A DNA stretch of 64,000 nucleotides from Eledone cirrhosa (taxonomy: Eukaryota), in contig OZ024750.1 of assembly GCA_964016885.1 (NCBI GenBank), positions 13,082,001 through 13,146,000 of the forward strand, given 5' to 3'. The position numbers were made by a program, and so were the translations under genes. Numbering within the stretch: position 1 is the stretch's first letter; each line of letters begins with the position of its first letter. The notes beneath the pieces were generated by a model that was given only the letters and a program-made list of their open reading frames with translations, was not told the origin of the DNA and searched no databases. Below, one piece after another: positions 8,190-50,347 of this stretch.

Positions 8190-8508
8190 CCTGATTAAAG
8201 CAGCATGCATCGATATGACATTACAAAGAAAGCATTTATTTTCTAGATGGATGATAAAGCTATGTTGACTAAATATAGAAATTAACAAAGACTGAACGAT
8301 ACTCCTGACAAAGATGGAACTGAAAGAGACATAAAACAAATACATTGATAAGTACATTATAAGACAGAAACATGGACAAATGACGACATGCCAACTAGGC
8401 ATAAATAAGCTACATAAAAATATATGCTTGTGTAAAAAGAAGCAGCAGTAGTAGCAGCAGCAAGTGCAGTAGCATAAATTAAATCCCAGATAATCGTCCA
8501 CAAAATAC
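8190..8508 (-). promoter_or_regulatory. Conserved intronic block after the exon A donor (UGCU cluster, GCAUG, UGCAUG at 8204-8209)
   Basis: Alignable by eye with the equivalent ~300 nt after exons B, C and D; motifs retained at equivalent positions. Confidence 0.6.
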
Positions 8509-11500
8509 CTATTTTTTCAACAATTTCTTCTTTCACTGAGCGAAGATCTTCAAGGCCAGGAAGGATTACATTTGGTTCAACAAATGTATCTCCCTCGTGC
8601 TGTATTATTGGGAGAATTGATTTTAAAAGTGCACCCTCATCATCCAAAGGTAAATTGTGAAGTTCTGAATAGTTTAATACAGATTCATCAATTTTCTCAG
8701 CATGTTGTTTTGAATCAATGGATATAGTAACAACTTCAGAAGTAGTGGAATCAACTTCATCAGATACTGAAGGAACAATACTGGATGAGATACTAATGTC
8801 ACTTTGAGTTGTCTCAGGTTTACCAATATCAATAAATGTAATTTCAGATTTCTCAGTAGGTTTCTCATCAATATCAAGTTTAATAGATACTTCCTCTATG
8901 GTTTCTGGTTTAATATCAACTTGGGTCTTTTCAACTGGTTCCTTTGAAACTACATCTTCATGTACAATTTCAGAAGGAATAGTTTCTTTAATGGTAATCT
9001 CTTGTAAATTAGTGCTAACAACACCTACAGATTTAGGTATCTCTACATGTTCTTTCTCTATATCAGTTGTATGTTCTACAGTGTCAACAACCACATCTTC
9101 TGCTGTATGAATCTCTTCAATTACAGTAACTGATGTGTCTTTCTTATCAACAGGTACCTCAGTAGTTTCAACTTTTGATTCTTTATCTGATGGAATATCA
9201 AAGAATTCTTCTTGAGAAAGTACTTCATCAGCTGTACTCACAATACTTACAGCTGGAGCACTTATTATTGTCATTTCAGAAATTTCTTTCACATCTTTCT
9301 GTACAGGAATGACTTCACTTTCCTTGCTGATTTCAATAACACTATCACTTACAATTTCTTCAGGAGTTTCTTCAGTTGTAGACATTTTTGTAGAACTAAC
9401 AGAAATCTGAAAACTACTCTCTTCAACTGGTTTAACACTCACTGTATCTTTAAATGGTTCTTCCAATGTCTCTACAATACTTTCTTTTTCTACTTCTTCA
9501 CCTGTTGTAAATGTTTGTTCAGTTTTTATAACTATAGGTGTTTGATCTTCAGATGTGATTTTCTTAGAATCAATTGATACAACCATTTCAACAGGAATAT
9601 CACTGATTTTCTCTGGAGAAATATCTGTTTTACTTTGTTCAGTACTGGTACTTATAACTGAAGTAACTGTAACAGATTCAACCGTATCTGGTATAACTGA
9701 TTCAGATATATCTGTAGGTTGAATTTCAGTAACAACTTTTACTTCTTCTTCTTCTGGTTGTTTTACCTTTATTTCAGTTGTAGAAATTGTTGTAATATCA
9801 GTAACTTCTGGTTTCTTCTCTTTAATTTCCAGTTCTTTACCTTCAATATGAACTGTACTTTCAGGTACAATATCAAAGGTAGACATTTCTGGTGTAATTG
9901 TTGTTTCTTCTTTACTGATAATAATTGCATTTTGAGCAAAAGTTACCTGTTCTTTTTCAGTAGAAATAACATCTGGTACTTTAGGTGTAACTTGCATTTC
10001 AATATCACACACTGTTGTCTCCGGTTTATCAATATCAATAAATGTAATTTCAGATTTCTCAGTAGGTTTCTCACCAATGTCAAGTTGAATAGATACTTCC
10101 TCTTTGGTTTCTGGTTTAATATCAAATTCGATCTTTTCCACTGGTTCCTTTGAAACGACATCTTCATGTACAATTTCAGAAGGAATAGTTTCTTTAATGG
10201 TAATCTCTTGTAAATCAGTGCTAACAACACCTACAGATTTAGGTGTCTCTACATGTTCTTTCTCAATATCAGTTGTATGTTCTACAGTGTCAACAACCAC
10301 ATCTTCTGCTGTATGAATCTCTTCAATTACAGTAACTGGTGTGTCTTTCTTATCAACAAGTATCTCAGTAGTTTCAACTTTTGTTTCTTTATCTGATGGA
10401 ATATCAAAGAATTCTTCTTCAGAAAGTACTTCATCAGCTGTACTTACAATACTTACAGCTGGAGCACTTATTATTGTCATTTCAGAAATTTCTTTCACTT
10501 CTTTCTGTACAGGAATGACTTCACTTTCCTTGCTGATTTCAATAACACTATCACTTACAATTTCTTGAGGAGTTTCTTCAGTTGTAGACATTTTGGTAGA
10601 ACTCACAGAAATCTGAAAACTACTCTCTTCAACTGGTTGAACACTCACTGTATCTTTAAATGGTTCTTCCAATGTCTCTACAGTACTTTCTTTTTCTACT
10701 TCTTCACCTGTTGTATATGTTTGTTCAGTTTTTATAACTATAGGTGTTTGATCTTCTGATATGATTTTCTTAGAATCAATTGATACAACCATTTCAACAG
10801 GAATATCACTGATTTTCTCTGGAGAAATATCTGTTTTACTTTGTTCAGTACTGGTACTTATAACTGAAGTAACTGTAACAGATTCAACCTTATCTGGTAT
10901 AACTGATTCAGATATATCTGTATGTTGAATTTCAGTAACAACTTTTACTTCTTCTTCTTCTGGTTGTTTTACCTTTATTTCAGTTGTGGAAATTGTTGTA
11001 ATATCAGTAACTTCTGGTTTCTTCTCTTTAATTTCCAGTTCTTTACCTTCAATATGAACTGTACTTTCAGGTACAATATCAAAGGTAGACATTTCTGGTG
11101 TAATTGTTGTTTCTTCTTTACTGATAATAATTGCACTTTGAGCAAAAGTTACCTGTTCTTTTTCAGTAGAAATAACATCTGGTACTTTAGGTGTAACTTG
11201 CATTTCAATATCACACACTGTTGTCTCAGGTTTATCAATATCAATAAATGTAATTTCAGATTTCTCAGTAGGTTTCTCACCAATGTCAAGTTGGATAGAT
11301 ACTTCCTCTTGGGTTTCTGGTTTAATATCAAATTCGATCTTTTCCACTGGTTCCTTTGAAACGACATCTTCATGTACAATTTCAGAAGGAATAGTTTCTT
11401 TAATGGTAATCTCTTGTAAATTAGTGCTAACAACACCTACAGATTTAGGTATCTCTACATGTTCTTTCTCTATATCAGTTGTATGTTCTACAGTGTCAAC

Positions 11501-12765
11501 AACTACATCTTCTGCTGTATGAATCTCTTCAATTACAGTAACTGATGTGTCTTTCTTATCAACAGGTACCTCAGTAGTTTCAACTTTTGTTTCTTCATCT
11601 GATGAGATATCAAAGAATTCTTCTTCAGAAAGTACTTCATCAGCTGTACTCACAATACTTACAGCTGGAGCACTTATTATTGTCATTTCAGAAATTTCTT
11701 TCACATCTTTCTGTACAGGAGTGATTTCACTTTCTTTGCTGATTTCAACAACACTATCACTTACAATTTCTTCAGGTGTTTCCTCAGTTGTAGACATTTT
11801 CGTAGAACTCACAGAAATCTGAAAACTACTCTCTTCAACTGGTTGAACACTCACTGTATCCTTAAATGGTTCTTCCAATGTCTCTACAGTACTTTCTTTT
11901 TCTACTTCTTCATCTGTTGTATACGTTTGTTCAGTTTTTATAACTATAGGTGTTTGATCTTCAGATGTGATTTTCTTAGAATCAATTGATACAACCATTT
12001 CAACAGGAATATCACTGATTTTCTCTGGAGAAATATCTGTTTTACTTTGTTCAGTACTGGTACTTATAACTGAAGTAACTGTAACAGATTGAACCGTATC
12101 TGGTATAACTGATTCAGATATATCTGTAGGTTGAATTTCAGTAACAATTTTTACTTCTTCTTCTGGTTGTTTTACCTTTATTTCAGTTGTAGAAATTGTT
12201 GTAATATCAGTAACTTCTGGTTTCTTCTCTTTAATTTCCAGTTTTTTACCTTCAATATGAACTGTACTTTCAGGTACAATATCAAAGGTAGACATTTCTG
12301 GTGTAATTGTTGTTTCTTCTTTACTGATAATAATTGCACTTTGAGCAAAAGTTACCTGTTCTTTTTCAGTAGAAATAACATCTGGTACTTTAGGTGTAAC
12401 TTGCATTTCAATATCACACACTGTTGTCTCAGGTTTACCAATATCAATAAATGTAATTTCAGATTTCTCTGTAGGTTTCTCACCAATGTCAAGTTGAATA
12501 GACACTTCTTCTTTAGTTTCTGGTTTAATATCAACTTGTGTCTTTTCAATAATATCTTCTTTTTTATTGCTTACTACTTCCATCTTAAAAGTAGCAGGTT
12601 CCACTACATCTGAAGTTATCTTTATATTCATATCCATCTTAGCTGTTTCTAATGAGGGTGAACTTTCTGTTATTTGTTCAACTTCCTTTATGGCCATTTT
12701 TGGTATTTCTTTAATCTTCTCTTCTTCCACAGTCATTGTTATTTCTTTACGTACTGGCAAATCAC
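8509..12765 (-). CDS. Giant exon A (4257 nt, 1419 codons, phase 1-1) with ~3 copies of the 402-aa acidic repeat
   Basis: Uninterrupted ORF 8357..12760; acceptor tttatattAG|GTGATTTG and donor AAAATAG|GTATTT, both shared by all four giant exons; length divisible by 3. Confidence 0.85.
8810..12545. repeat. Coding tandem array, 1206-bp unit (exon A)
   Basis: Near-identical shadow ORFs recur every 1206 bp (8898/10104; 9943/11149). Confidence 0.95.
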
Positions 12766-19440: not shown

Positions 19441-19514
19441 AAATACTATATCAATTTTGCCAAGCAGTAATAGAGAGAAGTGATATATTATGTGCTATGT
19501 AAGATTATAATACC

Positions 19515-19819
19515 TAGGCAAAGCAACATGCATCTAAACGATAATACAAAGAAAGCATTTTCTTTTTATGTGGACAATGTTATACTCATTTCTCATCAGA
19601 AATAACAGAGACCCAACAAAACTATTTACACATTATTCAGCTGAAAGAGACATGAAACAAGTACACTGGTTAAGTACATTAAAAGACATCATAATACACG
19701 TTTGAAAGCATGCTACCAAGGCATTGGTAAGCTACAAAGATTTATGCTTGTGTAAATTCAAGCAGTAGCAGCGAGTGCAGTAGCATAAAGTAAATCCTGC
19801 ATAAGGCTCCATAAAATAC
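19515..19819 (-). promoter_or_regulatory. Conserved intronic block after the exon B donor (UGCAUG at 19527-19532)
   Basis: Homologous to the blocks after exons A, C and D. Confidence 0.6.
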
Positions 19820-22800
19820 CTATGTCTTCAACAACTTCTTCTTTGAATGACTGAATATCTTCAGGACCAGAAAGGCTTGTTTTCGATTCAATAATTATAT
19901 CTCCCTCATGTACGATGCTTGGCAGAATGGTTTTTAAGACAGTTGTTTCATCAGTTATATTAAATTCAGATGAAGCAGAAATGATATCAGATTCCAATAC
20001 ATCAGGTTTACCAATATCAATAAATGTAATTTCTGATTTCTCAGTAGGTTTCTCATCAATATCAAGTTTAATAGATACTTCCTCTTTAGTTTCAGGTTTA
20101 ATATCAACTTGTGTCTTTTCAACTGGTTCCTTTGAAACTACATCTTCACGTACAATTTCAGAAGGAATAGTTTCTTGAATGGTAATCTCTTGTAAATCAG
20201 TGCTAACAACACCTACAGATTTAGGTATCTCTACATCTTCTTTTTCTATATCAGTTATATGTTCTACAGTGTCAACAACCAGATCTTCTGCTGTATGAAT
20301 CTCTTCAATTACAGTAACTGGTGTGTCTTTCTTATCAACAGGTATCACAGTAGTTTCAACTTTTGTTTCTTTATCTGATGGAATATCAAAGAATTCTTCT
20401 TCAGAAATTACTTCATCAGCTGTACTGACAATACTTACAGCTGGAGCACTTATTATTGACATTTCAGAAATTTCTTTCACATCTTTCTGTTCAGGAAAGA
20501 CTTCACTTTCCTTGCTGATTTCAATAACACTATCACTTACAATTTCTTCAGGTGTTTCTTCAGTTGTAGACATTTTCGTAGAACTAACGGAAATCTGAAT
20601 ACTACTCTCTTCAACTGGTTGAACACTCACTGTGTCTTTAAATGGTTCTGCCAATGTCTCTACAGTACTTTCTTTTTCTACTTCTTCACCTGTTGTAAAT
20701 GTTTGTTCAGTTTTTATAACTATAGGTGTTTGGTCCTCAGATGTGATTTTCTTAGAATCAATTGATACAACCATTTCAACAGGAATATCACTGATTTTCT
20801 CTGGAGAAATATCTGTTTTACTTTGTTCAGTGCTGGTACTTATAACTGAAGTAACTGTAACAGATTCAACCTTATCTGGTATAACTGATTCAGATATATC
20901 TGTAGGTTGAATTTCAGTAACAACTTTTACTTCTTCTTCTTCTGGTTGTTTTACCTTTATTTCAGTTGTAGAAATTGTTGTAATATCAGTAACTTTTGGT
21001 TTCTTCTCTTTAATTTCCAGTTCTTTACCTTCAATATGAACTGTACTTTCAGGTACAATATCAAATGTAGACATTTCTGGTGTAATTGTTGTTTCTTCTT
21101 TACTGATGATAATGTCACTTTTAGCAACAGTTACCTGTTCTTTTTCTATAGAAATAACATCCGGCACTGTAGGTGTAACTTGCATTTCAATATCACAGAC
21201 TGTTGTCTCAGGTTTACCAATATCAATAAATGTAATTTCAGATTTCTCAGTAGGTTTCTCACCAATGTCAAGTTGGATAGATACTTCCTCTTTAGTTTCT
21301 GGTTTAATATCAACTTGTGTCTTTTCAACCGGTTCCTTTGAAACTACATCTTCATGTACAATTTCAGAAGGAATAGTTTCTTTAATGGTAATCTCTTGTA
21401 AATCAGTGCTAACAACACCTACAGTTTGAGGTATCTCTACATCTTCTTTCTCTATATCAGTTGTATGTTCTACAGTGTCAACAACCACATCTTCTGCTGT
21501 ATGAATCTCTTCAATTACAGTCACTGATGTGTCTTTCTTATCAACAGGTATCTCAGTAGTTTCAACTTTTGTTTCTTTATCTGATGGAATATCAAAGAAT
21601 TCTTCTTCAGAAAGTACTTCATCAGCTGTACTTACAATACTTACAGATGGAGCACTTATTATTGTCATTTCAGAAATTTCTTTCACATCTTTCTGTTCAG
21701 GAAAGACTTCACTTTCCTTGCTGATTACAACGACACTATCACTTACAATTTCTTCAGGCGTTTCCTCAGTTGTAGACATTTTGGTAGAACTCACAGAAAT
21801 CTGAAAACTACTTGCTTCAACTGGTTTAACGCTCACTGTATCTTTAAATGGTTCTTCCAATGTCTCTACAGTACTTTCTTTTTCTACTTCTTCACCTGTG
21901 GTATATGTTTGTTCAGTTTTTATAACTATAGGTGTTTGGTCCTCAGATGTGATTTTCTTAGAATCAATTGATATAACCATTTCAACAGGAATATCACTGA
22001 TTTTCTCTGGAGAAATATCTGTTTTACTTTGTTCAGTGCTGGTACTTATAACTGAAGTAACTGTAACAGATTCAACCGTATCTGGTATAACTGATTCAGA
22101 TATATCTGTAGGCTGAATTTCAGTAACAACTTTTACTTCTTCTTCTTCTGGTTTTTTTACCTTTATTTCAGTTGTAGAAATTGTTGTAATATCAGTAACT
22201 TCTGGTTTCTTCTCTTTAATTTCCAGTTCTTTACCTTCAATATGAACTGTACTTTCAGGTACAATATCAAAGGTAGATATTTCTGGTGTAATTGTTGTTT
22301 CTTCTTTACTGATAATAATTCCACTTTTATCAAAAGTTATCTGTTCTTTTTCAGTAGAAATAACATCTGGTACTTTAGGTGTAACTTGCATTTCAATATC
22401 ACAGACTGTTGTCTCAGGTTTACCAATATCAATAAATGTAATTTCAGATTTCTTTATAGGTTTCTCACCAATGTCAAGTTGGATAGATACTTCCTCTTTA
22501 GTTTCTGGTTTAATATCAACTTGTGTCTTTTCAACTGGTTCCTTTGAAACTACATCTTCATGTACAGTTTCAGAAGGAATAGTTTCTTTAATGGTAATCT
22601 CTTGTAAATCAGTGCTAACAACAGCTACAGTTTGAGGTATCTCTACATCTTCTTTCTCTATATCAGTTGTATGTTCTACAGTGTCAACAACCACATCTTC
22701 TGCTGTATGAATCTCTTCAATTACAGTAACTGGTGTGTCTTTCTTATCAACAGGTATCTCAGTTGTTTCAACTTTTGATTCTTTATCTGATGGAATATCA

Positions 22801-25204
22801 AAGAATTCTTCTTCAGAAAGTACTTCATCAGCTGTACTTACAATACTTACAGCTGGAGCACTTATTATTGTCATTTCAGAAATTTCTTTCACATCTTTCT
22901 GTACAGGAATGACTTCACTTTCTTTGCTGATTACAACGACACTATCACTTACAATTTCTTCAGGTGTTTCCTCAGTTGTAGACATTTTGGTAGAACTCAC
23001 AGAAATCTGAAAACTACTCTCTTCAACTGGTTGAACACTCACTGTATCTTTAAATGGTTCTTCCAATGTCTCTACAGTACTTTCTTTTTCTACTTCTTCA
23101 CCTGTTGTAAATGTTTGTTCAGTTTTTATAACTATAGGTGTTTGGTCTTCAGATGTGATTTTCTTAGAATCAATTGATACAACCATTTCAACAGGAATAT
23201 CACTGATTTTCTCTGGAGAAATATCTGTTTTACTTTGTTCAGTACTGGTACTTATAACTGAAGTAACTGTAACAGATTCAACCTTATCTGGTATAACTGA
23301 TTCAGATATATCTGTAGGTTGAATTTCAGTAACAATTTTTACTTCTTCTTCTTCTGGTTGTTTTACCTTTATTTCAGTTGTAGAAATTGTTGTAATATCA
23401 GTAACTTCTGGTTTCTTCTCTTTAATTTCCAGTTCTTTACCTTCAATATGAACTGTACTTTCAGGTACAATATCAAAGGTAGACATTTCTGGTGTAATTG
23501 TTGTTTCTTCTTTACTGATAATAATTCCACTTTTAGCAACAGTTACCTGTTCTTTCTCGGTAGAAATAACATCTGGTACTTTAGGTGTAACTTGCATTTC
23601 AATTTCACCGACAGTTGTCTCAGGTTTACCAATATCAATAAATGTAATTTCAGATTTCTCTGTAGGTTTCTCACCAATGTCCAGTTGGATAGATACTTCC
23701 TCTTTAGTTTCAGGTTTAATATCAACTTGTGTCTTTACCACTGGTTCCTTTGAAACAACATCTTCATGTACAATTTCAGAAGGAATAGTTTCTTTAATGG
23801 TAATCTCTTGTAAATCAGTGCTAACAACACCTACAGTTTGAGGTATCTCTACATGTTCTTTCTCTATATCAGTTGTATGTTCTACAGTGTCAACAACCAC
23901 ATCTTCTGCTGTATGAATCTCTTCAATTACAGTCACTGATGTGTCTTTCTTATCAACAGGTACCTCAGTAGTTTCAACTTTTGTTTCTTCATCTGATGAG
24001 ATATCAAAGAATTCTTCTTCAGAAAGTACTTCATCAGCTGTACTTACAATACTTACAGCTGGAGCACTTATTATTGTCATTTCAGTAATTTCTTTCACAT
24101 CTTTCTGTACAGGAGTGATTTCACTTTCTTTGCTGATTTCAACAACTCTATCACTTACAATTTCTTCAGGAGTTTCTTCAGTTGTAGACATTTTGGTAGA
24201 ACTCACAGAAATCTGAATACTACTCTCTTCAACTGGTTGAACACTCACTGTATCTTTAAATGGTTCTTCCAATGTCTCTACAGTACTTTCTTTTTCTACT
24301 TCTTCACCTGTTGTAAATGTTTGTTCAGTTTTTATAACTATAGGTGTTTGGTCTTCAGATGTGATTTTCTTAGAATCAATTGATACAACCATTTCAACAG
24401 GAATATCACTGATTTTCTCTGGAGAAATATCTGTTTTACTTTGTTCAGTACTGGTACTTATAACTGAAGTAACTGTAACAGATTTAACCGTATCTGGTAT
24501 AACTGATTCAGATATATCTGTAGGTTGAATTTCAGTAACAACTTTTACTTCTTCTTCTTCTGGTTGTTTTACCTTTATTTCAGTTGTAGAAATTGTTGTA
24601 ATATCAGTAACCTCTGGTTTCTTCTCTTTAATTTCCAGTTCTTTACCTTCAATATGAACTGTACTTTCAGGTACAATATCAAAGGTAGACATTTCTGGTG
24701 TAATCGTTGTTTCTTCTTTACTGATAATAATTCCACTTTGAATAACAGTTACCTGTTCCTTTTCGGTAGAAATAATATCTGGTACTTTAGGTGTAACTTG
24801 CATTTCAATATCACACACTGTTGTCTCAGGTTTACCAATATCAATAAATGTAATTTCTGATTTCTCAGTAGGATTCTCTCCAATATCAAGTTGGATAGAT
24901 TCTTCCTCTTTAGTTTCTGGTTTAATATCAACTTGTGGTGTTTCTTTACTTGAAATTTGTATATCTATTCTCTTATCTATATTTTCAAATATTGATGGAC
25001 CTGTCTTTATTTGCTCTCTCTGAGAAATATAAACTTCATCTGATGTTACTATTTCCTTTTCAATATGAAAGTCTTCAGTTGTTTCTAATGAGGGTGAAAT
25101 TTCTGTTATTGTTTCAACTTTCTGTATAGCCATTTCTGGTATTTCTTTACTCTTCTCCTCTTCTTCCACAGTCATTGTTATTTCTTTTTGTACTGGTAAT
25201 TCAC
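19820..25204 (-). CDS. Giant exon B (5385 nt, 1795 codons, phase 1-1) with ~4 repeat copies
   Basis: ORF 19758..25175; tttatattAG|GTGAATTA; GACATAG|GTATTT; length divisible by 3. Confidence 0.85.
20000..24935. repeat. Coding tandem array, 1206-bp unit (exon B)
   Basis: Shadow ORF starts at 20323, 21529, 22735, 23941. Confidence 0.95.
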
Positions 25205-30120: not shown

Positions 30121-30159
30121 ACATGTCACATACAATAATTATATATATGTATATATATG

Positions 30160-30462: not shown

Positions 30463-33400
30463 CTATATCTTCAAAACTTTCTCCTTTGAATGACTGAAGA
30501 TCTTCAGGACCAGGAAGGATAATATCACCAGCAGAAATAATATCTTGTTCCTGTTTAAATTCGATCGATATTTCTTCTTTTTGTTTGGGCGATATAGCAA
30601 CTTCAAAAGAATCTTTGGCAGCGAAGGGTTCAACCTTATCTGGTATAACTGATTCAGATATATCTGTAGGTTGAATTTCAGTAACAACTGTTACTTCTTC
30701 TTCTTCTGGTTCTTTTATCTTTATTTCAGTTGTAGAAATTGTTGTAATATCAGTAACTTCTTTAATTTCCAGCTCTTTACCTTCAATATGAACTGTACTT
30801 TCAGGTACAATATCAAAGGTAGATATTTCTGGTGTAATTGTTGTTTCTTCTTTACTGATAATGATTTCACTTTTAGCAACAGTTACCTGTTCTTCTTCGG
30901 TAGAAATAATATCTGACACTTTAGGTGTAACTTGCATTTCAATTTCACAGACAGTTGTCTCAGGTTTACCAATATCAATAAATGTAATTTCAGATTTCTC
31001 TGTAGGTTTCTCACCAATATCAAGTTGGATAGATACTTCCTCTTTAGTTTCAGGTTTAATATCAACTTGTGTCTTTTCAACTGGTTCCTTTGAAACTACA
31101 TCTTCATGTACAATTTCAGAAGGAATAGTTTCTTTAATGGTAATCTCTTGTAAATCAGTGCTAACAACACCTACAGTTTGAGGTATCTCTACATCTTCTT
31201 TCTCTATATCAGTTGTATGTTCTACAGTGTCAACAACCACATCTTCTGCTGTATGAATCTCTTCAATTACAGTAACTGATGTGTCTTTCTTATCAACAGG
31301 TACCTCAGTAGTTTCTACGTTCGTTTCTTTATCCGATGGAATATCAAAGAGTTCTTCTTCAGAAAGTACTTCATCAGCTGTACTCACAATACTTACAGCT
31401 GGAGCACTTATTATTGTCATTTCAGAAATTTCTTTCACATCTTTCTGTTCAGGAATGACTTCACTTTCCTTGCTGATTACAACGACACTATCACTTACAA
31501 TTTCTTCAGGTGTTTCCTCAGTTGTAGACATTTTGGTAGAACTCACAGAAATCTGAATACTACTCTCTTCAACTGGTTGAACACTCACTGTATCTTTAAA
31601 TGGTTCTTCCAATGTCTCTACAGTACTTTCTTTTTCTACTTCTTCACCTGTTGTAAATGTTTGTTCAGTTTTTAATACTATAGGTGTTTGGTCTTCAGAT
31701 GTGATTTTCTGAGAATCAATTGATACAACCATTTCAACAGGAACATCACTGATTTTCTCTGGAGAAATATCTGTTTTACTTTGTTCAGTACTGGTACTTA
31801 TAACTGAAGTAACTGTAACAGATTCAAGCGTATCTGGTATAACTGATTCAGATATATCTGTAGGTTGAATTTCAGTAACAACTTTTACTTCTTCTTCTGG
31901 TTGTTTTACCTTTATTTCAGTTGTGGAAATTGTTGTAATATCAGTAACTTCTGGTTTCTTCTCTTTAATTTCCAGTTCTTTACCTTCAATATGAACTGTA
32001 CTTTCAGGTACAATATCAAAGGTAGATATTTCTGGTGTAATTGTTGTTTCTTCTTTAGTGATAATAATGTCACTTTTAGCAACAGTTGCCTGTTCTTTTT
32101 CAGTAGAAATAATATCTGGTACTTTAGGTGTAACTTGCATTTCAATTTCACACACTGTTGTCTCAGGTTTACCAATATCAATAAATGTAATTTCAGATTT
32201 CTCTGTAGATTTCTCACCAATATCAAGTTGGATAGATACTTCCTCTTTAGTTTCTCGTTTAATATCAACTTGTGTCTTTTCAACTGGTTCCTTTGAAACT
32301 ACATCTTCATGTACAATTTCAGAAGGAATAGTTTCTTTAATAGTAATCTCTTGTAAATCAGTGCTAACAACACCTACAGTTTGAGGTATCTCTACATCTT
32401 TCTCTATATCAGTTGTATGTTCTACAGTGTCAACAACTACATCTTCTGCTGTATGAATCTCTACAATTACAGTAACTGATGTGTCTTTCTTATCAACAGG
32501 TACCTCAGTAGTTTCAACTTTCGTTTCTTTATCTGATGGAATATCAAAGAGTTCTTCTTCAGAAATTACTTCATCAGCTGTACTCACAATACTTACAGCT
32601 GGCGCACTTATTATTGTCATTTCAGAAATTTCTTTCACATCTTTCTGTTCAGGAATGACTTCACTTTCCTTGCTGATTACAACGACACTATCACTTACAA
32701 TTTCTTCAGGTGTTTCCTCAGTTGTAGACATTTTGGTAGAACTCACAGAAATCTGAATACTACTCTCTTCAACTGGTTGAACACTCACTGTATCTTTAAA
32801 TGGTTCTTCCAATGTCTCTACAGTACTTTCTTTTTCTACTTCTTCACCTGTTGTAAATGTTTGTTCAGTTTTTAATATTATAGGTGTTTGGTCTTCAGAT
32901 GTGATTTTCTGAGAATCAATTGATATAACCATTTCAACAGGAATATCACTGATTTTCTCTGGAGAAATATCTGTTTTACTTTGTTCAGTACTGGTACTTA
33001 TAACTGAAGTAACTGTAACAGATTCAACCGTATCTGGTATAACTGATTCAGATATATCTGTAGGTTGAATTTCAGTAACAACTTTTACTTCTTCTTCTTC
33101 TGGTTGTTTTACTTTTATTTCAGTTGTAGAAATTGTTGTAATATCAGTAACTTCTGGTTTCTTCTCTTTAATTTCCAGTTCTTTACCTTCAATATGAACT
33201 GTACTTTCAGGTACAATATCAAAGGTAGATATTTCTGGTGTAATTGTTGTTTCTTCTTTAGTGATAATAATTTCACTTTTAGCAACAGTTACCTGTTCTT
33301 CATCGGTAGAAATAATATCTGGTACTTTAGGTGTAACTTGCATTTCAATTTCACACACTGTTGTCTCAGGTTTACCAATATCAATAAATGTAATTTCAGA

Positions 33401-36400
33401 TATCTCAGTAGGTTTCTCACCAATGTCAAGTTGGAGAGATACATCCTCTTTAGTTTCTGGTTTAATATCAACTTGTGTTTTTTCAACTGGTTCCTTTGAA
33501 ACTACATCTTCATGTACAATTTCAGAAGGAATAGTTTCTTTAATAGTAATCTCTTGTAAATCAGTGCTAACAACACCTACAGTTTGAGGTATCTCTACAT
33601 CTTTCTCTATATCAGTTGTATGTTCTACAGTGTCAACAACTACATCTTCTGCTGTATGAATCTCTTCAATTACAGTAACTGATGTGTCTTTCTTATCAAC
33701 AGGTACCTCAGTAGTTTCAACTTTCGTTTCTTTATCCGATGGAATATCAAAGAGTTCTTCTTCAGAAATTACTTCATCAGCTGTACTTACAATACTTACA
33801 GCTGGAGCACTTATTATTGTCATTTCAGAAATTTCTTTCACATCTTTCTGTTCAGGAATGACTTCACTTTCTTTGCTGATTTCAACAACACTATCACTTA
33901 CAATTTCTTCATGTGTTTCCTCAGTTGTAGACATTTTGGTAGAACTCACAGAAATCTGAATACTACTCTCTTCAACTGGTTGAACACTCACTGTATCTTT
34001 AAATGGTTCTTCCAATGTCTCTACAGTACTTTCTTTTTCTACTTCTTCACCTGTTGTAAATGTTTGTTCAGTTTTTAATATTATAGGTGTTTGGTCTTCA
34101 GATGTGATTTTCTGAGAATCAATTGATATAACCATTTCAACAGGAATATCACTGATTTTCTCTGGAGAAATATCTGTTTTACTTTTTTCAGTACTGGTAC
34201 TTATAACTGAAGTAACTGTAACAGATTCAACCGTATCTGGTATAACTGATTCAGATAAATCTGTAGGTTGAATTTCAGTAACAACTTTTACTTCTTCTTC
34301 TTCTGGTTGTTTTACCTTTATTTCAGTTGTAGAAATTGTTGTAATATCAGTAACTTCTGGTTTCTTCTCTTTAATTTCCAGTTCTTTACCTTCAATATGA
34401 ACTGTACTTTCAGGTACAATATCAAAGGTAGATATTTCTGGTGTAATTGTTGTTTCTTCTTTAGTGATAATAATTTCACTTTTAGCAACAGTTACCTGTT
34501 CTTCATCGGTAGAAATAATATCTGGTACTTTAGGTGTAACTTGCATTTCAATTTCACACACTGTTGTCTCAGGTTTACCAATATCAATAAATGTAATTTC
34601 AGATATCTCAGTAGGTTTCTCACCAATGTCAAGTTGTAGAGATACTTCCTCTTTAGTTTCTGGTTTAATATCAACTTGTGTCTTTTCAACTGGTTCCTTT
34701 GAAACTACATCTTCATGTACAATTTCAGAAGGAATAGTTTCTTTAATAGTAATCTCTTGTAAATCAGTGCTAACAACACCTACAGTTTGAGGTATCTCTA
34801 CATCTTCTTTCTCTATATCAGTTGTATTTTCTACAGTGTCAACAACCACATCTTCTGCTGTATGAATCTCTTCAATTACAGTAACTGATGTGTCTTTCTT
34901 ATCAACAGGTACCTCAGTAGTTTCAACTTTCGTTTCTTTATCCGATGGAATATCAAAGAGTTCTTCTTCAGAAAGTACTTCATCAGCTGTACTCACGATA
35001 CTTACAGCTGGAGCACTTATTATTGTCATTTCAGAAATTTCTTTCACATCTTTCTGTTCAGGAATGACTTCACTTTCCTTGCTGATTACAACGACACTAT
35101 CACTTACAATTTCTTCAGGTGTTTCCTCAGTTGTAGACATTTTGGTAGAACTCACAGAAATCTGAATACTACTCTCTTCAACTGGTTGAACACTCACTGT
35201 ATCTTTAAATGGTTCTTCCAATGTCTCTACAGTACTTTCTTTTTCTACTTCTTCACCTGTTGTAAATGTTTGTTCAGTTTTTAATATTATAGGTGTTTGG
35301 TCTTCAGATGTGATTTTCTGAGAATCAATTGATATAACCATTTCAACAGGAATATCACTGATTTTCTCTGGAGAAATATCTGTTTTACTTTGTTCAGTAC
35401 TGGTACTTATAACTGAAGTAACTGTAACAGATTCAACCGTATCTGGTATAACTGATTCAGATATATCTGTAGGTTGAATTTCAGTAACAACTTTTACTTC
35501 TTCTTCTTCTGGTTGTTTTACCTTTATTTCAGTTGTTGAAATTGTTGTAATATCAGTAACTTCTGGTTTCTTCTCTTTAATTTCCAGTTCTTTACCTTCA
35601 ATATGAACTGTACTTTCAGATACAATATCAAAGGTAGATATTTCTGGTGTAATTGTTGTTTCTTCTTTAGTGATAATAATTTCACTTTTAGCAACAGTTA
35701 CCTGTTCTTCATCGGTAGAAATAATATCTGGTACTTTAGGTGTAACTTGCATTTCAATTTCACACACTGTTGTCTCAGGTTTACCAATATCAATAAATGT
35801 AATTTCAGATATCTCAGTAGGTTTCTCACCAATGTCAAGTTGTAGAGATACTTCCTCTTTAGTTTCTGGTTTAATATCAACTTGTGTCTTTTCAACTGGT
35901 TCCTTTGAAACTACATCTTCATGTACAATTTCAGAAGGAATAGTTTCTTTAATGGTAATCTCTTGTAAATCAGTGCTAACAACACCTACAGTTTGAGGTA
36001 TCTCTACATCTTCTTTCTCTATATCAGTTGTATGTTCTACAGTGTCAACAACCACATCTTCTGCTGTATGAATCTCTTCAATTACAGTAACTGATGTGTC
36101 TTTCTTATCAACAGGTACCTCAGTAGTTTCAACTTTCGTTTCTTTATCCGATGGAATATCAAAGAGTTCTTCTTCAGAAAGTACTTCATCAGCTGTACTC
36201 ACGATACTTACAGCTGGAGCACTTATTATTGTCATTTCAGAAATTTCTTTCACATCTTTCTGTTCAGGAATGACTTCACTTTCCTTGCTGATTACAACGA
36301 CACTATCACTTACAATTTCTTCAGGTGTTTCCTCAGTTGTAGACATTTTGGTAGAACTCACAGAAATCTGAATACTACTCTCTTCAACTGGTTGAACACT

Positions 36401-39400
36401 CACTGTATCTTTAAATGGTTCTTCCAATGTCTCTACAGTACTTTCTTTTTCTACTTCTTCACCTGTTGTAAATGTTTGTTCAGTTTTTAATACTATAGGT
36501 GTTTGGTCTTCAGATGTGATTTTCTGAGAATCAATTGATACAACCATTTCAACAGGAATATCACTGATTTTCTCTGGAGAAATATCTGTTTTACTTTGTT
36601 CAGTACTGGTACTTATAACTGAAGTAACTGTAACAGATTCAAGCGTATCTGGTATAACTGATTCAGATATATCTGTAGGTTGAATTTCAGTAACAACTTT
36701 TACTTCTTCTTCTTCTGGTTGTTTTACCTTTATGTCAGTTGTGGAAATTGTTGTAATATCAGTAACTTCTGGTTTCTTCTCTTTAATTTCCAGTTCTTTA
36801 CCTTCAATATGAACTGTACTTTCAGGTACAATATCAAAGGTAGATATTTCTGGTGTAATGGTTGTTTCTTCTTTAGTGATAATAATTTCACTTTTAGCAA
36901 CAGTTACCTGTTCTTCATCGGTAGAAATAATATCTGGTACTTTAGGTGTAACTTGCATTTCAATTTCACACACTGTTGTCTCAGGTTTACCAATATCAAT
37001 AAATGTAATTTCAGATATCTCAGTAGGTTTCTCACCAATGTCAAGTTGTAGAGATACTTCCTCTTTAGTTTCTGGTTTAATATCAACTTGTGTCTTTTCA
37101 ACTGGTTCCTTTGAAACTACATCTTCATGTACAATTTCAGAAGGAATAGTTTCTTTAATAGTAATCTCTTGTAAATCAGTGCTAACAACACCTACAGTTT
37201 GAGGTATCTCTACATCTTCTTTCTCTATATCAGTTGTATTTTCTACAGTGTCAACAACCACATCTTCTGCTGTATGAATCTCTTCAATTACAGTAACTGA
37301 TGTGTCTTTCTTATCAACAGGTACCTCAGTAGTTTCAACTTTCGTTTCTTTATCCGATGGAATATCAAAGAGTTCTTCTTCAGAAAGTACTTCATCAGCT
37401 GTACTCACGATACTTACAGCTGGAGCACTTATTATTGTCATTTCAGAAATTTCTTTCACATCTTTCTGTTCAGGAATGACTTCACTTTCCTTGCTGATTA
37501 CAACGACACTATCACTTACAATTTCTTCAGGTGTTTCCTCAGTTGTAGACATTTTGGTAGAACTCACAGAAATCTGAATACTACTCTCTTCAACTGGTTG
37601 AACACTCACTGTATCTTTAAATGGTTCTTCCAATGTCTCTACAGTACTTTCTTTTTCTACTTCTTCACCTGTTGTAAATGTTTGTTCAGTTTTTAATATT
37701 ATAGGTGTTTGGTCTTCAGATGTGATTTTCTGAGAATCAATTGATATAACCATTTCAACAGGAATATCACTGATTTTCTCTGGAGAAATATCTGTTTTAC
37801 TTTGTTCAGTACTGGTACTTATAACTGAAGTAACTGTAACAGATTCAACCGTATCTGGTATAACTGATTCAGATATATCTGTAGGTTGAATTTCAGTCAC
37901 AACTTTTACTTCTTCTTCTTCTGGTTGTTTTACCTTTATTTCAGTTGTTGAAATTGTTGTAATATCAGTAACTTCTGGTTTCTTCTCTTTAATTTCCAGT
38001 TCTTTACCTTCAATATGAACTGTACTTTCAGATACAATATCAAAGGTAGATATTTCTGGTGTAATTGTTGTTTCTTCTTTAGTGATAATAATTTCACTTT
38101 TAGCAACAGTTACCTGTTCTTCATCGGTAGAAATAATATCTGGTACTTTAGGTGTAACTTGCATTTCAATTTCACACACTGTTGTCTCAGGTTTACCAAT
38201 ATCAATAAATGTAATTTCAGATATCTCAGTAGGTTTCTCACCAATGTCAAGTTGTAGAGATACTTCCTCTTTAGTTTCTGGTTTAATATCAACTTGTGTC
38301 TTTTCAACTGGTTCCTTTGAAACTACATCTTCATGTACAATTTCAGAAGGAATAGTTTCTTTAATGGTAATCTCTTGTAAATCAGTGCTAACAACACCTA
38401 CAGTTTGAGGTATCTCTACATCTTCTTTCTCTATATCAGTTGTATGTTCTACAGTGTCAACAACCACATCTTCTGCTGTATGAATCTCTTCAATTACAGT
38501 AACTGATGTGTCTTTCTTATCAACAGGTACCTCAGTAGTTTCAACTTTCGTTTCTTTATCCGATGGAATATCAAAGAGTTCTTCTTCAGAAAGTACTTCA
38601 TCAGCTGTACTCACGATACTTACAGCTGGAGCACTTATTATTGTCATTTCAGAAATTTCTTTCACATCTTTCTGTTCAGGAATGACTTCACTTTCCTTGC
38701 TGATTACAACGACACTATCACTTACAATTTCTTCAGGTGTTTCCTCAGTTGTAGACATTTTGGTAGAACTCACAGAAATCTGAATACTACTCTCTTCAAC
38801 TGGTTGAACACTCACTGTATCTTTAAATGGTTCTTCCAATGTCTCTACAGTACTTTCTTTTTCTACTTCTTCACCTGTTGTAAATGTTTGTTCAGTTTTT
38901 AATACTATAGGTGTTTGGTCTTCAGATGTGATTTTCTGAGAATCAATTGATACAACCATTTCAACAGGAATATCACTGATTTTCTCTGGAGAAATATCTG
39001 TTTTACTTTGTTCAGTACTGGTACTTATAACTGAAGTAACTGTAACAGATTCAAGCGTATCTGGTATAACTGATTCAGATATATCTGTAGGTTGAATTTC
39101 AGTAACAACTTTTACTTCTTCTTCTTCTGGTTGTTTTACCTTTATGTCAGTTGTGGAAATTGTTGTAATATCAGTAACTTCTGGTTTCTTCTCTTTAATT
39201 TCCAGTTCTTTACCTTCAATATGAACTGTACTTTCAGGTACAATATCAAAGGTAGATATTTCTGGTGTAATGGTTGTTTCTTCTTTAGTGATAATAATTT
39301 CACTTTTAGCAACAGTTACCTGTTCTTCATCGGTAGAAATAATATCTGGTACTTTAGGTGTAACTTGCATTTCAATTTCACACACTGTTGTCTCAGGTTT

Positions 39401-42400
39401 ACCAATATCAATAAATGTAATTTCAGATATCTCAGTAGGTTTCTCACCAATGTCAAGTTGTAGAGATACTTCCTCTTTAGTTTCTGGTTTAATATCAACT
39501 TGTGTCTTTTCAACTGGTTCCTTTGAAATTACATCTTCATGTACAATTTCAGAAGGAATAGTTTCTTTAATGTTAATCTCTTGTAAATCAGTGCTAACAA
39601 CACCTACAGTTTGAGGTATCTCTACATCTTCTTTCTCTATATCAGTTGTATGTTCTACAGTGTCAACAACCACATCTTCTGCTGTATGAATCTCTTCAAT
39701 TACAGTAACTGATGTGTCTTTCTTATCAACAGGTACCTCAGTAGTTTCAACTTTCGTTTCTTTATCCGATGGAATATCAAAGAGTTCTTCTTCAGAAAGT
39801 ACTTCATCAGCTGTACTCACGATACTTACAGCTGGAGCACTTATTATTGTCATTTCAGAAATTTCTTTCACATCTTTCTGTTCAGGAATGACTTCACTTT
39901 CCTTGCTGATTACAACGACACTATCACTTACAATTTCTTCAGGTGTTTCCTCAGTTGTAGACATTTTGGTAGAACTCACAGAAATCTGAATACTACTCTC
40001 TTCAACTGGTTGAACACTCACTGTATCTTTAAATGGTTCTTCCAATGTCTCTACAGTACTTTCTTTTTCTACTTCTTCACCTGTTGTAAATGTTTGTTCA
40101 GTTTTTAATATTATAGGTGTTTGGTCTTCAGATGTGATTTTCTGAGAATCAATTGATATAACCATTTCAACAGGAATATCACTGATTTTCTCTGGAGAAA
40201 TATCTGTTTTACTTTGTTCAGTACTGGTACTTATAACTGAAGTAACTGTAACAGATTCAACCGTATCTGGTATAACTGATTCAGATATATCTGTAGGTTG
40301 AATTTCAGTAACAACTTTTACTTCTTCTTCTTCTGGTTGTTTTACCTTTATTTCAGTTGTAGAAATTGTTGTAATATCAGTAACTTCTGGTTTCTTCTCT
40401 TTAATTTCCAGTTCTTTACCTTCAATATGAACTGTACTTTCAGATACAATATCAAAGGTAGATATTTCTGGTGTAATTGTTGTTTCTTCTTTAGTGATAA
40501 TAATTTCACTTTTAGCAACAGTTACCTGTTCTTCATCGGTAGAAATAATATCTGGTACTTTAGGTGTAACTTGCATTTCAATTTCACACACTGTTGTCTC
40601 AGGTTTACCAATATCAATAAATGTAATTTCAGATATCTCAGTAGGTTTCTCACCAATGTCAAGTTGGAGAGATACTTCCTCTTTAGTTTCTGGTTTAATA
40701 TCAACTTGTGTTTTTTCAACTGGTTCCTTTGAAACTACATCTTCATGTACAATTTCAGAAGGAATAGTTTCTTTAATGTTAATCTCTTGTAAATCAGTGC
40801 TAACAACACCTACAGTTTGAGGTATCTCTACATCTTCTTTCTCTATATCAGTTGTATGTTCTACAGTGTCAACAACCACATCTTCTGCTGTATGAATCTC
40901 TTCAATTACAGTAACTGATGTGTCTTTCTTATCAACAGGTACCTCAGTAGTTTCAACTTTCGTTTCTTTATCCGATGGAATATCAAAGAGTTCTTCTTCA
41001 GAAAGTACTTCATCAGCTGTACTCACGATACTTACAGCTGGAGCACTTATTATTGTCATTTCAGAAATTTCTTTCACATCTTTCTGTTCAGGAATGACTT
41101 CACTTTCCTTGCTGATTACAACGACACTATCACTTACAATTTCTTCAGGTGTTTCCTCAGTTGTAGACATTTTGGTAGAACTCACAGAAATCTGAATACT
41201 ACTCTCTTCAACTGGTTGAACACTCACTGTATCTTTAAATGGTCCTTCCAATGTCTCTACAGTACTTTCTTTTTCTACTTCTTCACCTGTTGTAAATGTT
41301 TGTTCAGTTTTTAATACTATAGGTGTTTGGTCTTCAGATGTGATTTTCTGAGAATCAATTGATACAACCATTTCAACAGGAATATCACTGATTTTCTCTG
41401 GAGAAATATCTGTTTTACTTTGTTCAGTACTGGTACTTATAACTGAAGTAACTGTAACAGATTCAAGCGTATCTGGTATAACTGATTCAGATACATCTGT
41501 AGGTTGAATTTCAGTAACAACTTTTACTTCTTCTTCTTCTGGTTGTTTTACCTTTATATCAGTTGTGGAAATTGTTGTAATATCAGTAACTTCTGGTTTC
41601 TTCTCTTTAATTTCCAGTTCTTTACCTTCAATATGAACTGTACTTTCAGGTACAATATCAAAGGTAGATATTTCTGGTGTAATGGTTGTTTCTTCTTTAG
41701 TGATAATAATTTCACTTTTAGCAACAGTTACCTGTTCTTCATCGGTAGAAATAATATCTGGTACTTTAGGTGTAACTTGCATTTCAATTTCACACACTGT
41801 TGTCTCAGGTTTACCAATATCAATAAATGTAATTTCAGATATCTCAGTAGGTTTCTCACCAATGTCAAGTTGTAGAGATACTTCCTCTTTAGTTTCTGGT
41901 TTAATATCAACTTGTGTCTTTTCAACTGGTTCCTTTGAAACTACATCTTCATGTACAATTTCAGAAGGAATAGTTTCTTTAATGGTAATCTCTTGTAAAT
42001 CAGTGCTAACAACACCTACAGTTTGAGGTATCTCTACATCTTTCTCTATATCAGTTGTATGTTCTACAGTGTCAACAACTACATCTTCTGCTGTATGAAT
42101 CTCTTCAATTACAGTAACTGATGTGTCTTTCTTATCAACAGGTAACTCAGTAGTTTCAACTTTCGTTTCTTTATCCGATGGAATATCAAAGAGTTCTTCT
42201 TCAGAAATTACTTCATCAGCTGTACTCACAATACTTACAGCTGGAGCACTTATTATTGTCATTTCAGAAATTTCTTTCACATCTTTCTGTTCAGGAATGA
42301 CTTCACTTTCTTTGCTGATTTCAACAACACTATCACTTACAATTTCTTCAGGTGTTTCCTCAGTTGTAGACATTTTGGTAGAACTCACAGAAATCTGAAA

Positions 42401-44571
42401 ACTACTTGCTTCAACTGGTTTAACGCTCACTGTATCTTTAAATGGTTCTTCCAATGTCTCTACAGTACTTTCTTTTTCTACTTCTTCACCTGTTGTAAAT
42501 GTTTGTTCGGTTTTTATAACTATAGGTGTTTTATCTTCAGATGTGATTTTCTTAGAATCAATTGATATAACCATTTCAACAGGAATATCACTCATTTTCT
42601 CTGGAGGAATATCACTCATTTTCTCTGGGGAAATATCTGTTTTACTTTGTTCAGTACTAGTACTTATAACTGAAGTAACTGTAACAGATTCAACCGTATC
42701 TGGTATAACTGATTCAGATATATCTGTAGGTTGAATTTCAGTAACAACTTTTACTTCTTCTTCTTCTGGTTGTTTTACCTTTATTTCAGTTGTGGAAATT
42801 GTTGTAATATCAGTAACTTCTGGTTTCTTCTCTTTAATTTCCAGTTCTTTACCTTCAATATGAACTGTACTTTCAGGTACAATATCAAAGGTAGATATTT
42901 CTGGTGTAATTGTTGTTTCTTCTTTAGTGATAATAATTTCACTTTTAGCAACAGTTACCTGTTCTTCATCAGTAGAAATAACATCTGGTACTTTAGGTGT
43001 AACTTGCATTTCAATTTCACACACTGTTGTCTCAGGTTTACCAATATCAATAAATGTAATTTCAGATTTCTCTGTAGGTTTCTCACCAATGTCAAGTTGG
43101 ATAGATACTTCCTCTTTAGTTTCAGGTTTAATATCAACTTGTGTCTTTTCAACTGGTTCCTTTGAAACTACATCTTCATACACAATTTCAGAAGGAATAG
43201 TTTCTTTAATGGTAATCTCTTGTAAATCAGTGCTAACAACACCTACAGTTTGAGATATCTCTACATCTTCTTTCTCTATATCAGTTGTATGTTCTACTGT
43301 GTCAACAACTACATCTTCTGCTGTATGAATCTCTTCAATTACAGTAACTGATGTGTCTTTCTTATCAACAGGTACCTCAGTAGTTTCAACTTTCGTTTCT
43401 TTATCCGATGGAATATCAAAGATTTCTTCATCAGAAAGTACTTCATCAGCTGTACTTACAATACTTACAGCTGGGGCACTTATTATTGTCATTTCAGAAA
43501 TTTCTTTCACATCTTTCTGTTCAGGAATGACTTCACTTTCTTTGCTGATTTCAACAACACTATCACTTACAATTTCTTCAGGTGTTTCCTCAGTTGTAGA
43601 CATTTTGGTAGAACTCACAGAAATCTGAATACTACTCTCTTCAACTGGTTTAACACTCACTGTATCTTTAAATGGTTCTTCACATGTCTCTACAGTACTT
43701 TCTTTTTCTACTTCTTCACCTGTTGTAAATGTTTGTTCGGTTTTTATAACTATAGGTGTTTTATCTTCAGATGTGATTTTCTTAGAATCAATTGATATAA
43801 CCATTTCAACAGGAATATCACTCATTTTCTCTGGAGAAATATCTGTTTTACTTTGTTCAGTACTAGTACTTATAACTGAAGTAACTGTAACAGATTCAAC
43901 CGTATCTGGTATAACTGATTCAGATATATCTGTAGGTTGAATTTCAGTAACAACTTTTACTTCTTCTTCTTCTGGTTGTTTTACCTTTATTTCAGTTGTG
44001 GAAATTGTTGTAATATCAGTAACTTCTGGTTTCTTCTCTTTAATTTCCAGTTCTTTACCTTCAATATGAACTGTACTTTCAGGTACAATATCAAAGGTAG
44101 ATATTTCTGGTGTAATTGTTGTTTCTTCTTTAGTGATAATAATTTCACTTTTAGCAACAGTGACCTCTTCTTCATCGGTAGAAATAACATCTGGTACTTT
44201 AGGTGTAACTTGCATTTCAATTTCACACACTGTTGTCTCAGGTTTACCAATATCAATAAATGTAATTTCAGATTTCCCTGTAGGTTTCTCACCAATGTCA
44301 AGTTGGATAGATACTTCCTCTTTAGTTTCTGGTTTAATATCAACTTGTATCTTTTCAATAATATCTTCTTTTTTATCTCTTACTACTTCCATCTCATAAG
44401 CAGCAGTTTCCACTATATCTGAAGTTATCTTTATATCTATCTTAGCAGTTTCTAATAAAGGTGAACCTTCTGTTATTTCTTTAACTTTCTCTATAGCCTT
44501 TTCTGTCATTTCTTTAATCTTCTTATCTTCTTCCAAAGTGATTGTTATTTCTCTATCAACTGGCATATCAC
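30463..44571 (-). CDS. Giant exon C (14109 nt, 4703 codons, phase 1-1) with ~11.5 repeat copies
   Basis: ORF 30401..44566; tttatattAG|GTGATATG; GATATAG|GTATTT; length divisible by 3. Confidence 0.85.
30630..44355. repeat. Coding tandem array, 1206-bp unit with 2412-bp higher-order structure (exon C)
   Basis: Shadow ORF starts at 34890, 36096, 37302, 38508, 39714, 40920; alternating variants at 36680/39092/41504. Confidence 0.95.
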
Positions 44572-46377: not shown

Positions 46378-46415
<38 letters not shown>

Positions 46416-46501
46416 GTAATAATAATAAATGTGAAGACTAAAATCCAAAGAGGGCTAGATAAGGATAAATATATATCAAATATATAAGAACCCTAGAGCA
46501 A

Positions 46502-48920: not shown

Positions 48921-50059
48921 CTATAAGGCAATAATCTGATATGAACTTTAATATCATTAAACAGAAGTGTTAACAGCAACACTTATGCTATTTTCCAGTT
49001 TGAAAAGAGAAAGATAGAGGCAGAAGTTTCAATACAAAATTTTTCTAAAACTAATACAAAGTTTATAAGAATGTACTCTATTACTGAGGCTTCAAATTGA
49101 TTTATTAAGAATAATATGTAACTAGTTAATATTCAAGATAAGATTAGGAATTGGAAGAGCTAAAGTATAGACTTTATATATTTATTTGGGATTTCTGTAA
49201 TCTGAGTTCAAATCCCCTTCAGATCGACTTTGATGTTCAACGTATTGGAATCAATAAAGTATAGTACCAGTGTAGGTTAGTGAAATTATAATGTTGCCTT
49301 AGAAATACAGTAGTAAAGTAGGAAAATGTATATATGTAAGTCAAGAGAACATTAATATGAATAAACAAGATTGTATGTGAAATAACAACACAAACATTGA
49401 ATGATCAATTGATATGTTCTAACAATCATAATAATTAATGCAAAATACCCTTACTTAAATAAACTGACACATTACTGTTATATTCATCAATATAAGCTTA
49501 AATATTGAGCGGTTTTATGCTACATGTATGCACAAAATGCAAGTGTATTATAGGCTCGGCTCTTTTACATGCAATTGTAAAACCTAAAACATACTATGAT
49601 GAAATAATAATTGATGAACTAATAAACTGCACCTATAAACAATTATATGATATAAAGCATTAGTTAAAGGTTAACAATATGGAAATGCATGAACAATATG
49701 GAATTGTTCAAATATATTCTAACCATCAGACAAAGCAGATTGAGAATATGTATATTATAATAGTGCATAGATATTATCAGAGAATATAGATAGTAACAAA
49801 AAGAGAGAGAGAGAAAGATGAAGTGAAACAAAAACAAATGATAATGATACAGATAGAAGAATAAAAAAAATAAAAGGAGCAGAAAAAGAGAAATGTAGAG
49901 AGATGTAGAGAGATAAAGGAACTTGAAACACATATGTGAAATGAAGTGAGAAAGAATGAGTAACGAGAATAACAGTGACTTCGACTAAACATGAGTAAAA
50001 AAAATAAGGAGGTAGATAAAGAGTGAAAGATATGTTCCATTTTACATCACTTAAGTTCG

Positions 50060-50347
50060 CTAGGTGAAGCTGCATGCACTATGTACTAATTAATACAAAG
50101 AAAGCAACTTCTTTCATATTGACAAAGTTATCAGAAATTACAGAGACCCAACATAATAACTGACAAATTATTGAGCTGAAAGAGACATGAAAACATATAC
50201 AATGGTTAAGTATTTGAAAGACAACACAGTTGACAGCATGCTACCTAGGCATTGGTAAGCTACATCAATTGATGCTTGTGTAAACTCAAGCAGAGGCAGT
50301 GAGTGTAGAAGCACGAATTAAATCCTGCATAATGTTCTACAAAATAC
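50060..50347 (-). promoter_or_regulatory. Conserved intronic block after the exon D donor (UGCAUG at 50073-50078)
   Basis: Homologous to the blocks after exons A, B and C. Confidence 0.6.

Follow-up and report, generated by a model that had tools for sequence, protein, structure and literature searches.

In the cephalopod Eledone cirrhosa, a predicted titin/sallimus-like giant muscle gene contains four tandemly duplicated giant exons that are alternatively spliced, and each of them is followed in its intron by a conserved block of about 310 nucleotides (nt). The exons lie in a stretch of 64,000 nt (assembly GCA_964016885.1, contig OZ024750.1, positions 13,082,001 to 13,146,000), which we call the window. 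We lean towards a reading in which the block is a splicing-control module where Muscleblind (Mbl), at GCUU, and Rbfox, at GCAUG and UGCAUG, would promote inclusion of the giant exons. Coordinates are those of the window unless another sequence is named; the gene runs on the minus strand, and so do the features of it that are located below.

Four giant exons and their alternative use

The window was read together with 100 kb on each side (264 kb in all, a span beyond which the gene extends at its ends) of a 3.0 Gb genome, in DNA rich in AT and microsatellites. The exons flanking the giant ones encode I-set Ig, IQ and Fn3 domains (Pfam I-set, IQ and fn3), the best PDB matches of the protein of the flanking exons are to titin, and at least 45 Fn3 exons lie downstream of the giant exons. 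With I-set Ig, Fn3 and low-complexity spring segments in one gene, this is by its domain content a titin/sallimus-like giant muscle gene of the sls/I-connectin/twitchin group. The giant exons are long open frames, each a single exon with AG/GT ends, all in phase 1-1 and all with lengths that are multiples of 3. In the order of transcription these tandem paralogues are exon D (50348..57412; 7065 nt or 7.1 kb, 2355 residues, about 5.5 copies of a 1206-nt repeat), exon C (30463..44571; 14109 nt or 14.1 kb, 4703 residues, about 11.4 copies), exon B (19820..25204; 5385 nt or 5.4 kb, 1795 residues, about 4.1 copies) and exon A (8509..12765; 4257 nt or 4.3 kb, 1419 residues, about 3.1 copies). The 402-residue unit that the repeat encodes is rich in E, V, T, I, S and K, has about 6% proline and matches no Pfam family. 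Across the four exons its copies share about 96% identity, and within C up to 99.9%; with a protein homologue from Argonauta hians, however, the best alignment is only 50% identical, a pattern that points to concerted evolution of the repeat units. The open reading frame of that homologue starts with a sequence that, judged by eye, resembles the unique 5' part of exon B. Among the four exons the unique 5' ends agree at 66-86%, and the unique 3' ends are scarcely alignable.

The alternative use of these exons is seen in assembled contigs. No run is recorded as RNA; one, X4, was taken as such since its contigs are spliced while those of X1-X3 traverse introns. Its kind and tissue are off record, and contigs drop rare forms. 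The contig that matches exactly at the acceptor of A opens with 17 nt of a 132-nt upstream exon whose donor (G000:C10:13166662) lies about 72 kb upstream, outside the window. This exon is thus joined straight to A, and D, C and B are skipped with the frame preserved; skipping of A itself does not appear in the contigs. At the other end of A, record 17 of X4 links the donor at 8509 to the downstream exons in one open frame (329 + 39 + 110 + 199 + 34 + 37 + 298 = 1046 nt); the 329-, 199- and 298-nt pieces are listed directly, and the remaining ones follow from lengths and depths. Both ends of A are therefore used in spliced contigs.

The contigs over the other three exons are more fragmentary. 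That of D starts 17 nt before the exon and departs there from the sequence of the D intron. The first 13 nt of A and D are the same, and a branch of a 31-mer graph should give an overlap of 30, which is 17 + 13; this contig geometry makes it likely that the 132-nt exon joins D too. The X4 contig of B leaves the B intron at the acceptor, so B is spliced; the 67 nt upstream belong neither to that intron nor to the common upstream exon and end in TAG, which suggests a different upstream partner, for which C or D would fit. For C, an X4 contig covers the 5' part and stops short of the acceptor. Taken together, the joins point to combinable cassettes rather than to strict mutual exclusion.

The exon that follows A in record 17 is the 39-nt one at 5118..5156, placed by splice sites, open frame, depth arithmetic and a frame check. 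It is one of three small exons among the Ig exons, of 39, 34 and 37 nt (5156-5118, 3119-3086 and 2362-2326), that fit the length and frame of the contig. The 110-nt exon at 4292..4401 encodes the first half of an I-set Ig domain, with the second half at 3976-3778, and the exon at 1242..1539 is an I-set Ig exon by Pfam and PDB comparison, with titin as its best PDB matches. Two side observations concern the wider gene. The 132-nt upstream exon has a very weak donor (score 0.5), and read-through of it (exon and tail at G000:C10:13166516-13166793, minus) would give a 49-residue tail with a strongly hydrophobic stretch of 19 residues (mean Kyte-Doolittle 2.3), a Cys-rich end and three consecutive stops. 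This tail, with no match in Pfam and no usable one in the ESM Atlas, makes a membrane-anchored short isoform of the titin-like protein possible. The gene also has more large open frames (1263, 1498 and 1118 codons; G000:C10:13074434-13078222, just below the window, and 13172953-13183528), which are not paralogous to A-D and have no GCAUG past their candidate donors.

Weak splice sites and the conserved downstream block

The original prediction called the GTATTT donor of the giant exons weak, and it is: scored with matrices trained on 45 Fn3 exons of the same gene, which flatters those 45 in the comparison, the four donors score 4.1, below 45/45 Fn3 donors. The four acceptors score 0.3-3.5, below 44-45/45 Fn3 acceptors. 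Such weakness at either end is what one would expect of regulated exons. The approximately 70 nt upstream of each acceptor (12766-12835 for A, 25205-25274 for B, 44572-44641 for C and 57413-57482 for D) are conserved at 68-81% identity despite a poor pyrimidine tract, and form a likely second control element by this conservation. At 57492-57483, 80 nt upstream of the weak acceptor of D, is an acceptor that is strong (12.8) and is followed by a GT donor after 10 nt; at roughly this distance A and B also show AGs behind a pyrimidine tract, but weaker ones.

The downstream blocks occupy 8184..8508 (A), 19507..19819 (B), 30153..30462 (C) and 50054..50347 (D). Each has a first GCAUG (8391-8387, 19713-19709, 30356-30352 and 50241-50237), a U-rich 13-mer (8234-8222, 19557-19545, 30201-30189 and 50106-50094) and a UGCAUG (8209-8204, 19532-19527, 30177-30172 and 50078-50073). 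The UGCAUG sites had been predicted at about +270-300 past the donors, and measure +300 (A), +288 (B), +286 (C) and +270 (D); the positions first given for them, 8204, 19527, 30172 and 50073, are plus-strand starts of CATGCA, the motifs being read on the minus strand. The first GCAUG, expected at about +110-120, is at +118 in A but slightly earlier, at +107, in B, C and D. A GCU-rich run announced for +35-80 is present in A at about 8473-8440 (about +36..+69), but the cluster itself is only partly kept among the copies.

This combination of motifs is uncommon in its surroundings. YGCY occurs 6, 4, 3 and 3 times in +30..+80 of A, B, C and D, and three or more are reached in only 1.1% of background 50-nt intron segments and in 0/45 introns after Fn3 exons. 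At least five GCUU are found in 16/1862 overlapping 325-nt intron segments, UGCAUG plus a second GCAUG also in 16/1862, and the two together in 0/1862, whereas all four blocks combine at least five GCUU with the GCAUG pair. That pair occurs in 1/45 Fn3 introns. The module of U-rich 13-mer and UGCAUG is limited to these four sites genome-wide, so there is no genome-wide code. A search of Rfam with block B gave 0 matches. Blocks A and B end in AG|GTAT; its reading as a recursive splice site was rejected, as it scores poorly for one and is lost in C and D.

Alignment of the four introns changes the picture of how the motifs are kept. They had been described as retained in otherwise diverged copies; instead, the whole block aligns throughout, with 69-80% pairwise identity and 168/287 ungapped columns invariant, so there are no isolated islands. 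Within it both GCAUG sites are invariant, compared with 10% of 5-mers and 6-7% of 6-mers. The picture for YGCY is mixed: four of the 6-10 sites in a block are kept, compared with 22% of other degenerate 4-mers, but only two of those in the +35-80 run are kept in all copies. GCUU is the commonest invariant 4-mer (4/48), at the head of a list that continues with UGCU, GCAU and GUCU, so that, as read from the alignment, the conserved YGCY signal is one of scattered GCUU sites rather than of the +35-80 cluster. The longest invariant runs are other elements, namely the 13-nt U-rich run and a polypyrimidine tract with CAG (12/13 columns invariant). Conservation is clumped (10 invariant runs of at least 6 nt; column permutation, P = 0.0007) and falls off at about +320. 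Local alignment scores of the block are 180-326 at 73-83% identity, higher than those of its neighbours: distal intron scores 55-245 (67-72% identity), and the last 300 nt of the exons 48-134.

How might the block work? Exons of 4-14 kb with weak ends would allow no definition across the exon, so that factors bound downstream would help U1 to hold the donor. Genes of both factors are present: Muscleblind zinc fingers are encoded on C9 and a Fox-1 RRM exon on C23 of the same genome (Pfam Fox-1_C has no match in the genome, and none in the controls either). For a flatworm MBNL-1, one report gives GCUUGC as the top motif, with motifs enriched downstream of the exons that it promotes (PMC4978528), and the vertebrate motifs and positional rule of MBNL and RBFOX are outlined in another (PMC12064062). 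The outcome would be a disordered E/V/T-rich segment varying from 0 to about 10,270 residues, which may tune the length of the I-band spring.

Several observations weigh against this reading. The blocks were duplicated together with their exons and have one evolutionary origin; they are four sequences, with introns from one species, and not four independent observations. The longest invariant run alone is not significant (P = 0.07). Block identity overlaps that of the four-fold sites of the unique exon ends (13/16, 8/13 and 7/11, small counts) and that of a D-C intron remnant at 68%, so selection is not proven. Among the other large exons of the gene, GCAUG follows 0/9 candidate donors, which come from 5 of the 6 exons examined; this argues against a general giant-exon code in this gene. 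The exon downstream of the open reading frame 90953-95446 has a strong donor followed by 5 GCUU, so that weak donors are not alone in being followed by many GCUU. All the RNA evidence, finally, comes from the single run X4. The clumping and the invariant sites still make selection on the block likely, and the view of the giant exons as regulated cassettes keeps in its favour their alternative use, their weak donors and acceptors, the Mbl and Rbfox words as the best kept, and the genes of both factors; it loses the weight that four copies would have had if they did not share one origin.

A hidden acceptor and other explanations of the block

Overlooked in the original prediction, a strong 3' splice site is conserved between the two GCAUG sites; it lies at +172 to +189 and has a branch-point-like sequence, a pyrimidine tract and CAG. 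It could be the true target of the regulation by the motifs. The four acceptors score 9.6-13.7, in the top 1-2% of 1305 intronic AGs, and a GT donor that follows 11 nt later (10 in A) scores 4.9-6.8, above the giant exons' own donors. The candidate microexons are 8310..8319 after A (10 nt; acceptor 9.6, donor 5.3), 19630..19640 after B (11 nt; 10.8 and 4.9), 30271..30281 after C (11 nt; 11.7 and 6.8) and 50165..50175 after D (11 nt; 13.7 and 6.8). Spliced in phase, they would read as two codons and an in-frame TAA (Ala-Glu-stop in B, Ala-Gln-stop in C and D) or, in A, shift the frame; as predicted, they have the 3-27 nt between AG and GT and the stop or frameshift of a poison microexon. The first GCAUG and 3/4 invariant GCUU lie upstream of this acceptor, and UGCAUG lies 87-101 nt downstream of it. 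The site could serve a stop microexon or a short terminal exon, act as a decoy, or be a pyrimidine-rich site for a protein. Under the Mbl/Rbfox control of the giant exons that we favour, the two factors may also have to silence it.

The strongest competing explanation, which we regard as possible though clearly the less probable, is that the block was built around this 10-11-nt stop or frameshift microexon (or short terminal exon), with Mbl and the first GCAUG repressing it and UGCAUG activating it, and with a truncated kettin/novex-3-like protein or decay as the result. The strength of its acceptors and donors speaks for it, as do the branch-point-like sequence, the 12/13 invariant columns of tract and CAG and the in-frame TAA in B, C and D. 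Of 16 strong AGs in the 46,896 nt of nearby intron only 2 head a comparable unit, and none of the 45 Fn3 donors is followed by one. On the other hand, the body of the microexon is conserved only like the rest of the block (5/10 columns), its donor hexamer at 3/6, and there is no common poly(A) signal downstream. Record 17, the sole contig over the A donor, has no room for the microexon, its 1046 nt being fully accounted for by length and depth, a result that concerns A only. The X4 depth of 0.36 over block A (bin 8064-8374) would equal 11 nt at the depth of record 17; another bin has a similar surplus, hence the value is uninformative. No protein with such an end was found among 17 candidates of 38-123 residues, which is a weak test, and length-limited protein searches with the end of exon B and with the four exon ends gave no match.

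It is also conceivable, if doubtful, that the block is passively inherited, a leftover of the tandem duplication of exon plus intron, perhaps refreshed by gene conversion from the repeats, with the motifs incidental. Whole introns were indeed duplicated, since collinear remnants extend past the block, and both the homogeneity of the repeat units and a block identity near that of four-fold sites would fit. Yet the block has diverged less than the coding exon ends that separate it from the repeats, conservation is clumped within it and drops at its end, and, given the rates of the block itself, both GCAUG would be invariant with a probability of about 0.003-0.007 (for motifs picked after being seen). 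These introns hold other material as well. The D-C intron piece 49470-49680 has one 94%-identical copy at G000:C1:249424199-249424372, perhaps as mobile-element cargo, and long inverted repeats (87%) resembling miniature inverted-repeat transposable elements are found in introns B-A (16681-17086) and D-C (about 46500-46650).

Two further explanations have very little probability. In the first, the GCU run would be Ala/Thr codons of a read-through C-terminal tail, the giant exon being a composite terminal exon. B and C are open for 20 codons and stop at the same place, A is open for 50 hydrophobic codons with a 9-nt insertion that preserves the frame, and read-through of the 132-nt upstream exon also gives a long hydrophobic tail. 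Such a tail is unlikely after the giant exons, as in D a stop comes after 3 codons, P0001, the homologue from Argonauta hians, ends two residues past the same donor-like position, and the X4 depth in bin 8375-8685 is wholly explained by the exon itself.

The second takes the blocks for selector sequences that pair with a docking site and so make the exons mutually exclusive, as in arrays of the Dscam type. The paralogous exons do stand in tandem, agree in phase and are conserved in both flanks, but we hold this interpretation to be just as improbable: five conserved elements, allowing at most one mismatch, have only one distant complement in the 264 kb; duplex scans of block halves over limited target regions, a weak test, gave -18 to -23 kcal/mol compared with -16 to -21 for three shuffles each; the two pairing sites inspected differ in register; the RNAalifold consensus of the blocks is weak (-18.75 kcal/mol over 332 columns) and the covariation term is -0.12; and the upstream partner of B is apparently not the common upstream exon.

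Known systems and significance for cephalopod muscle

Titin novex-3 truncation uses a terminal exon. If the stop microexon were real, it would resemble novex-3 and kettin, as far as partial accounts of them go, in ending right after a large exon and leaving an N-terminal, Z-disc-side protein. It would differ in its means: those forms use a terminal exon or a poly(A) site, as does the short form of Drosophila sallimus, which arises by early poly(A) in the account of PMC9886278, whereas here a 10-11-nt stop exon is predicted, four times.

The closest known counterpart of the gene itself is sallimus (D-titin/kettin), likewise an Ig/Fn3 giant muscle gene with low-complexity spring exons that are spliced out in some muscles (as outlined in PMC9886278). 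Its spring splicing is attributed to CELF/Bru1, and the action of Rbfox1 and Mbl to other sarcomere genes, in the sections of PMC11081514 and PMC13322953 that deal with it. The spring described here is encoded by four single exons, paralogues of 4-14 kb that repeat one homogenised 402-residue unit and have a flanking block each; the unit is E/V/T/I-rich and not a true PEVK, and at least 45 Fn3 exons follow, compared with the five C-terminal Fn domains given for Sls in PMC9886278. Protostome titin homologues are discussed, in part, in PMC12198301.

The block itself recalls the MBNL/RBFOX enhancers of the Snap23 microexon and of planarian MBNL exons, which in the relevant parts of PMC12064062 and PMC4978528 also combine a weak 5' splice site with YGCY/GCUU and two (U)GCAUG within 300 nt. 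Those are small, experimentally tested exons, whereas the target here would be a multi-kilobase exon or a hidden microexon, read from sequence alone. With tandem duplicated exon substitution and mutually exclusive arrays, as treated in portions of PMC9741552, the giant exons share homology, tandem order, equal phase and alternative use; unlike them, they differ mainly in length (repeat number) and not in sequence, and no docking site was found in the regions searched. Mbl and Rbfox downstream of a weak donor and the splicing of titin springs are well-known regulatory logic; of the four-exon array itself we found no account in the open-access literature.

With its four copies, the array offers a natural experiment on the recognition of exons of 4-14 kb whose splice sites are weak at both ends. 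It also provides four optional length modules (of 1419, 1795, 4703 and 2355 residues) that can be assayed by reverse-transcription PCR and compared between muscles, through which splicing could set the length of the muscle spring. Such modules are worth testing, since cephalopods seem, from what PMC4757648 reports in part, to tune contraction speed through filament and sarcomere dimensions and not through tissue-specific myosins. One might speculate further, and quite tentatively, that the array is a modular spring-length selector in which each exon was duplicated with Mbl and Rbfox sites around a 10-11-nt stop microexon. If so, the cell would pick both the number of 402-residue units and whether to terminate there, giving four truncated kettin-like lengths beside the full-length forms. 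The array would then be a candidate molecular handle on a tuning of cephalopod muscle that works through sarcomere geometry and not through myosin isoforms.

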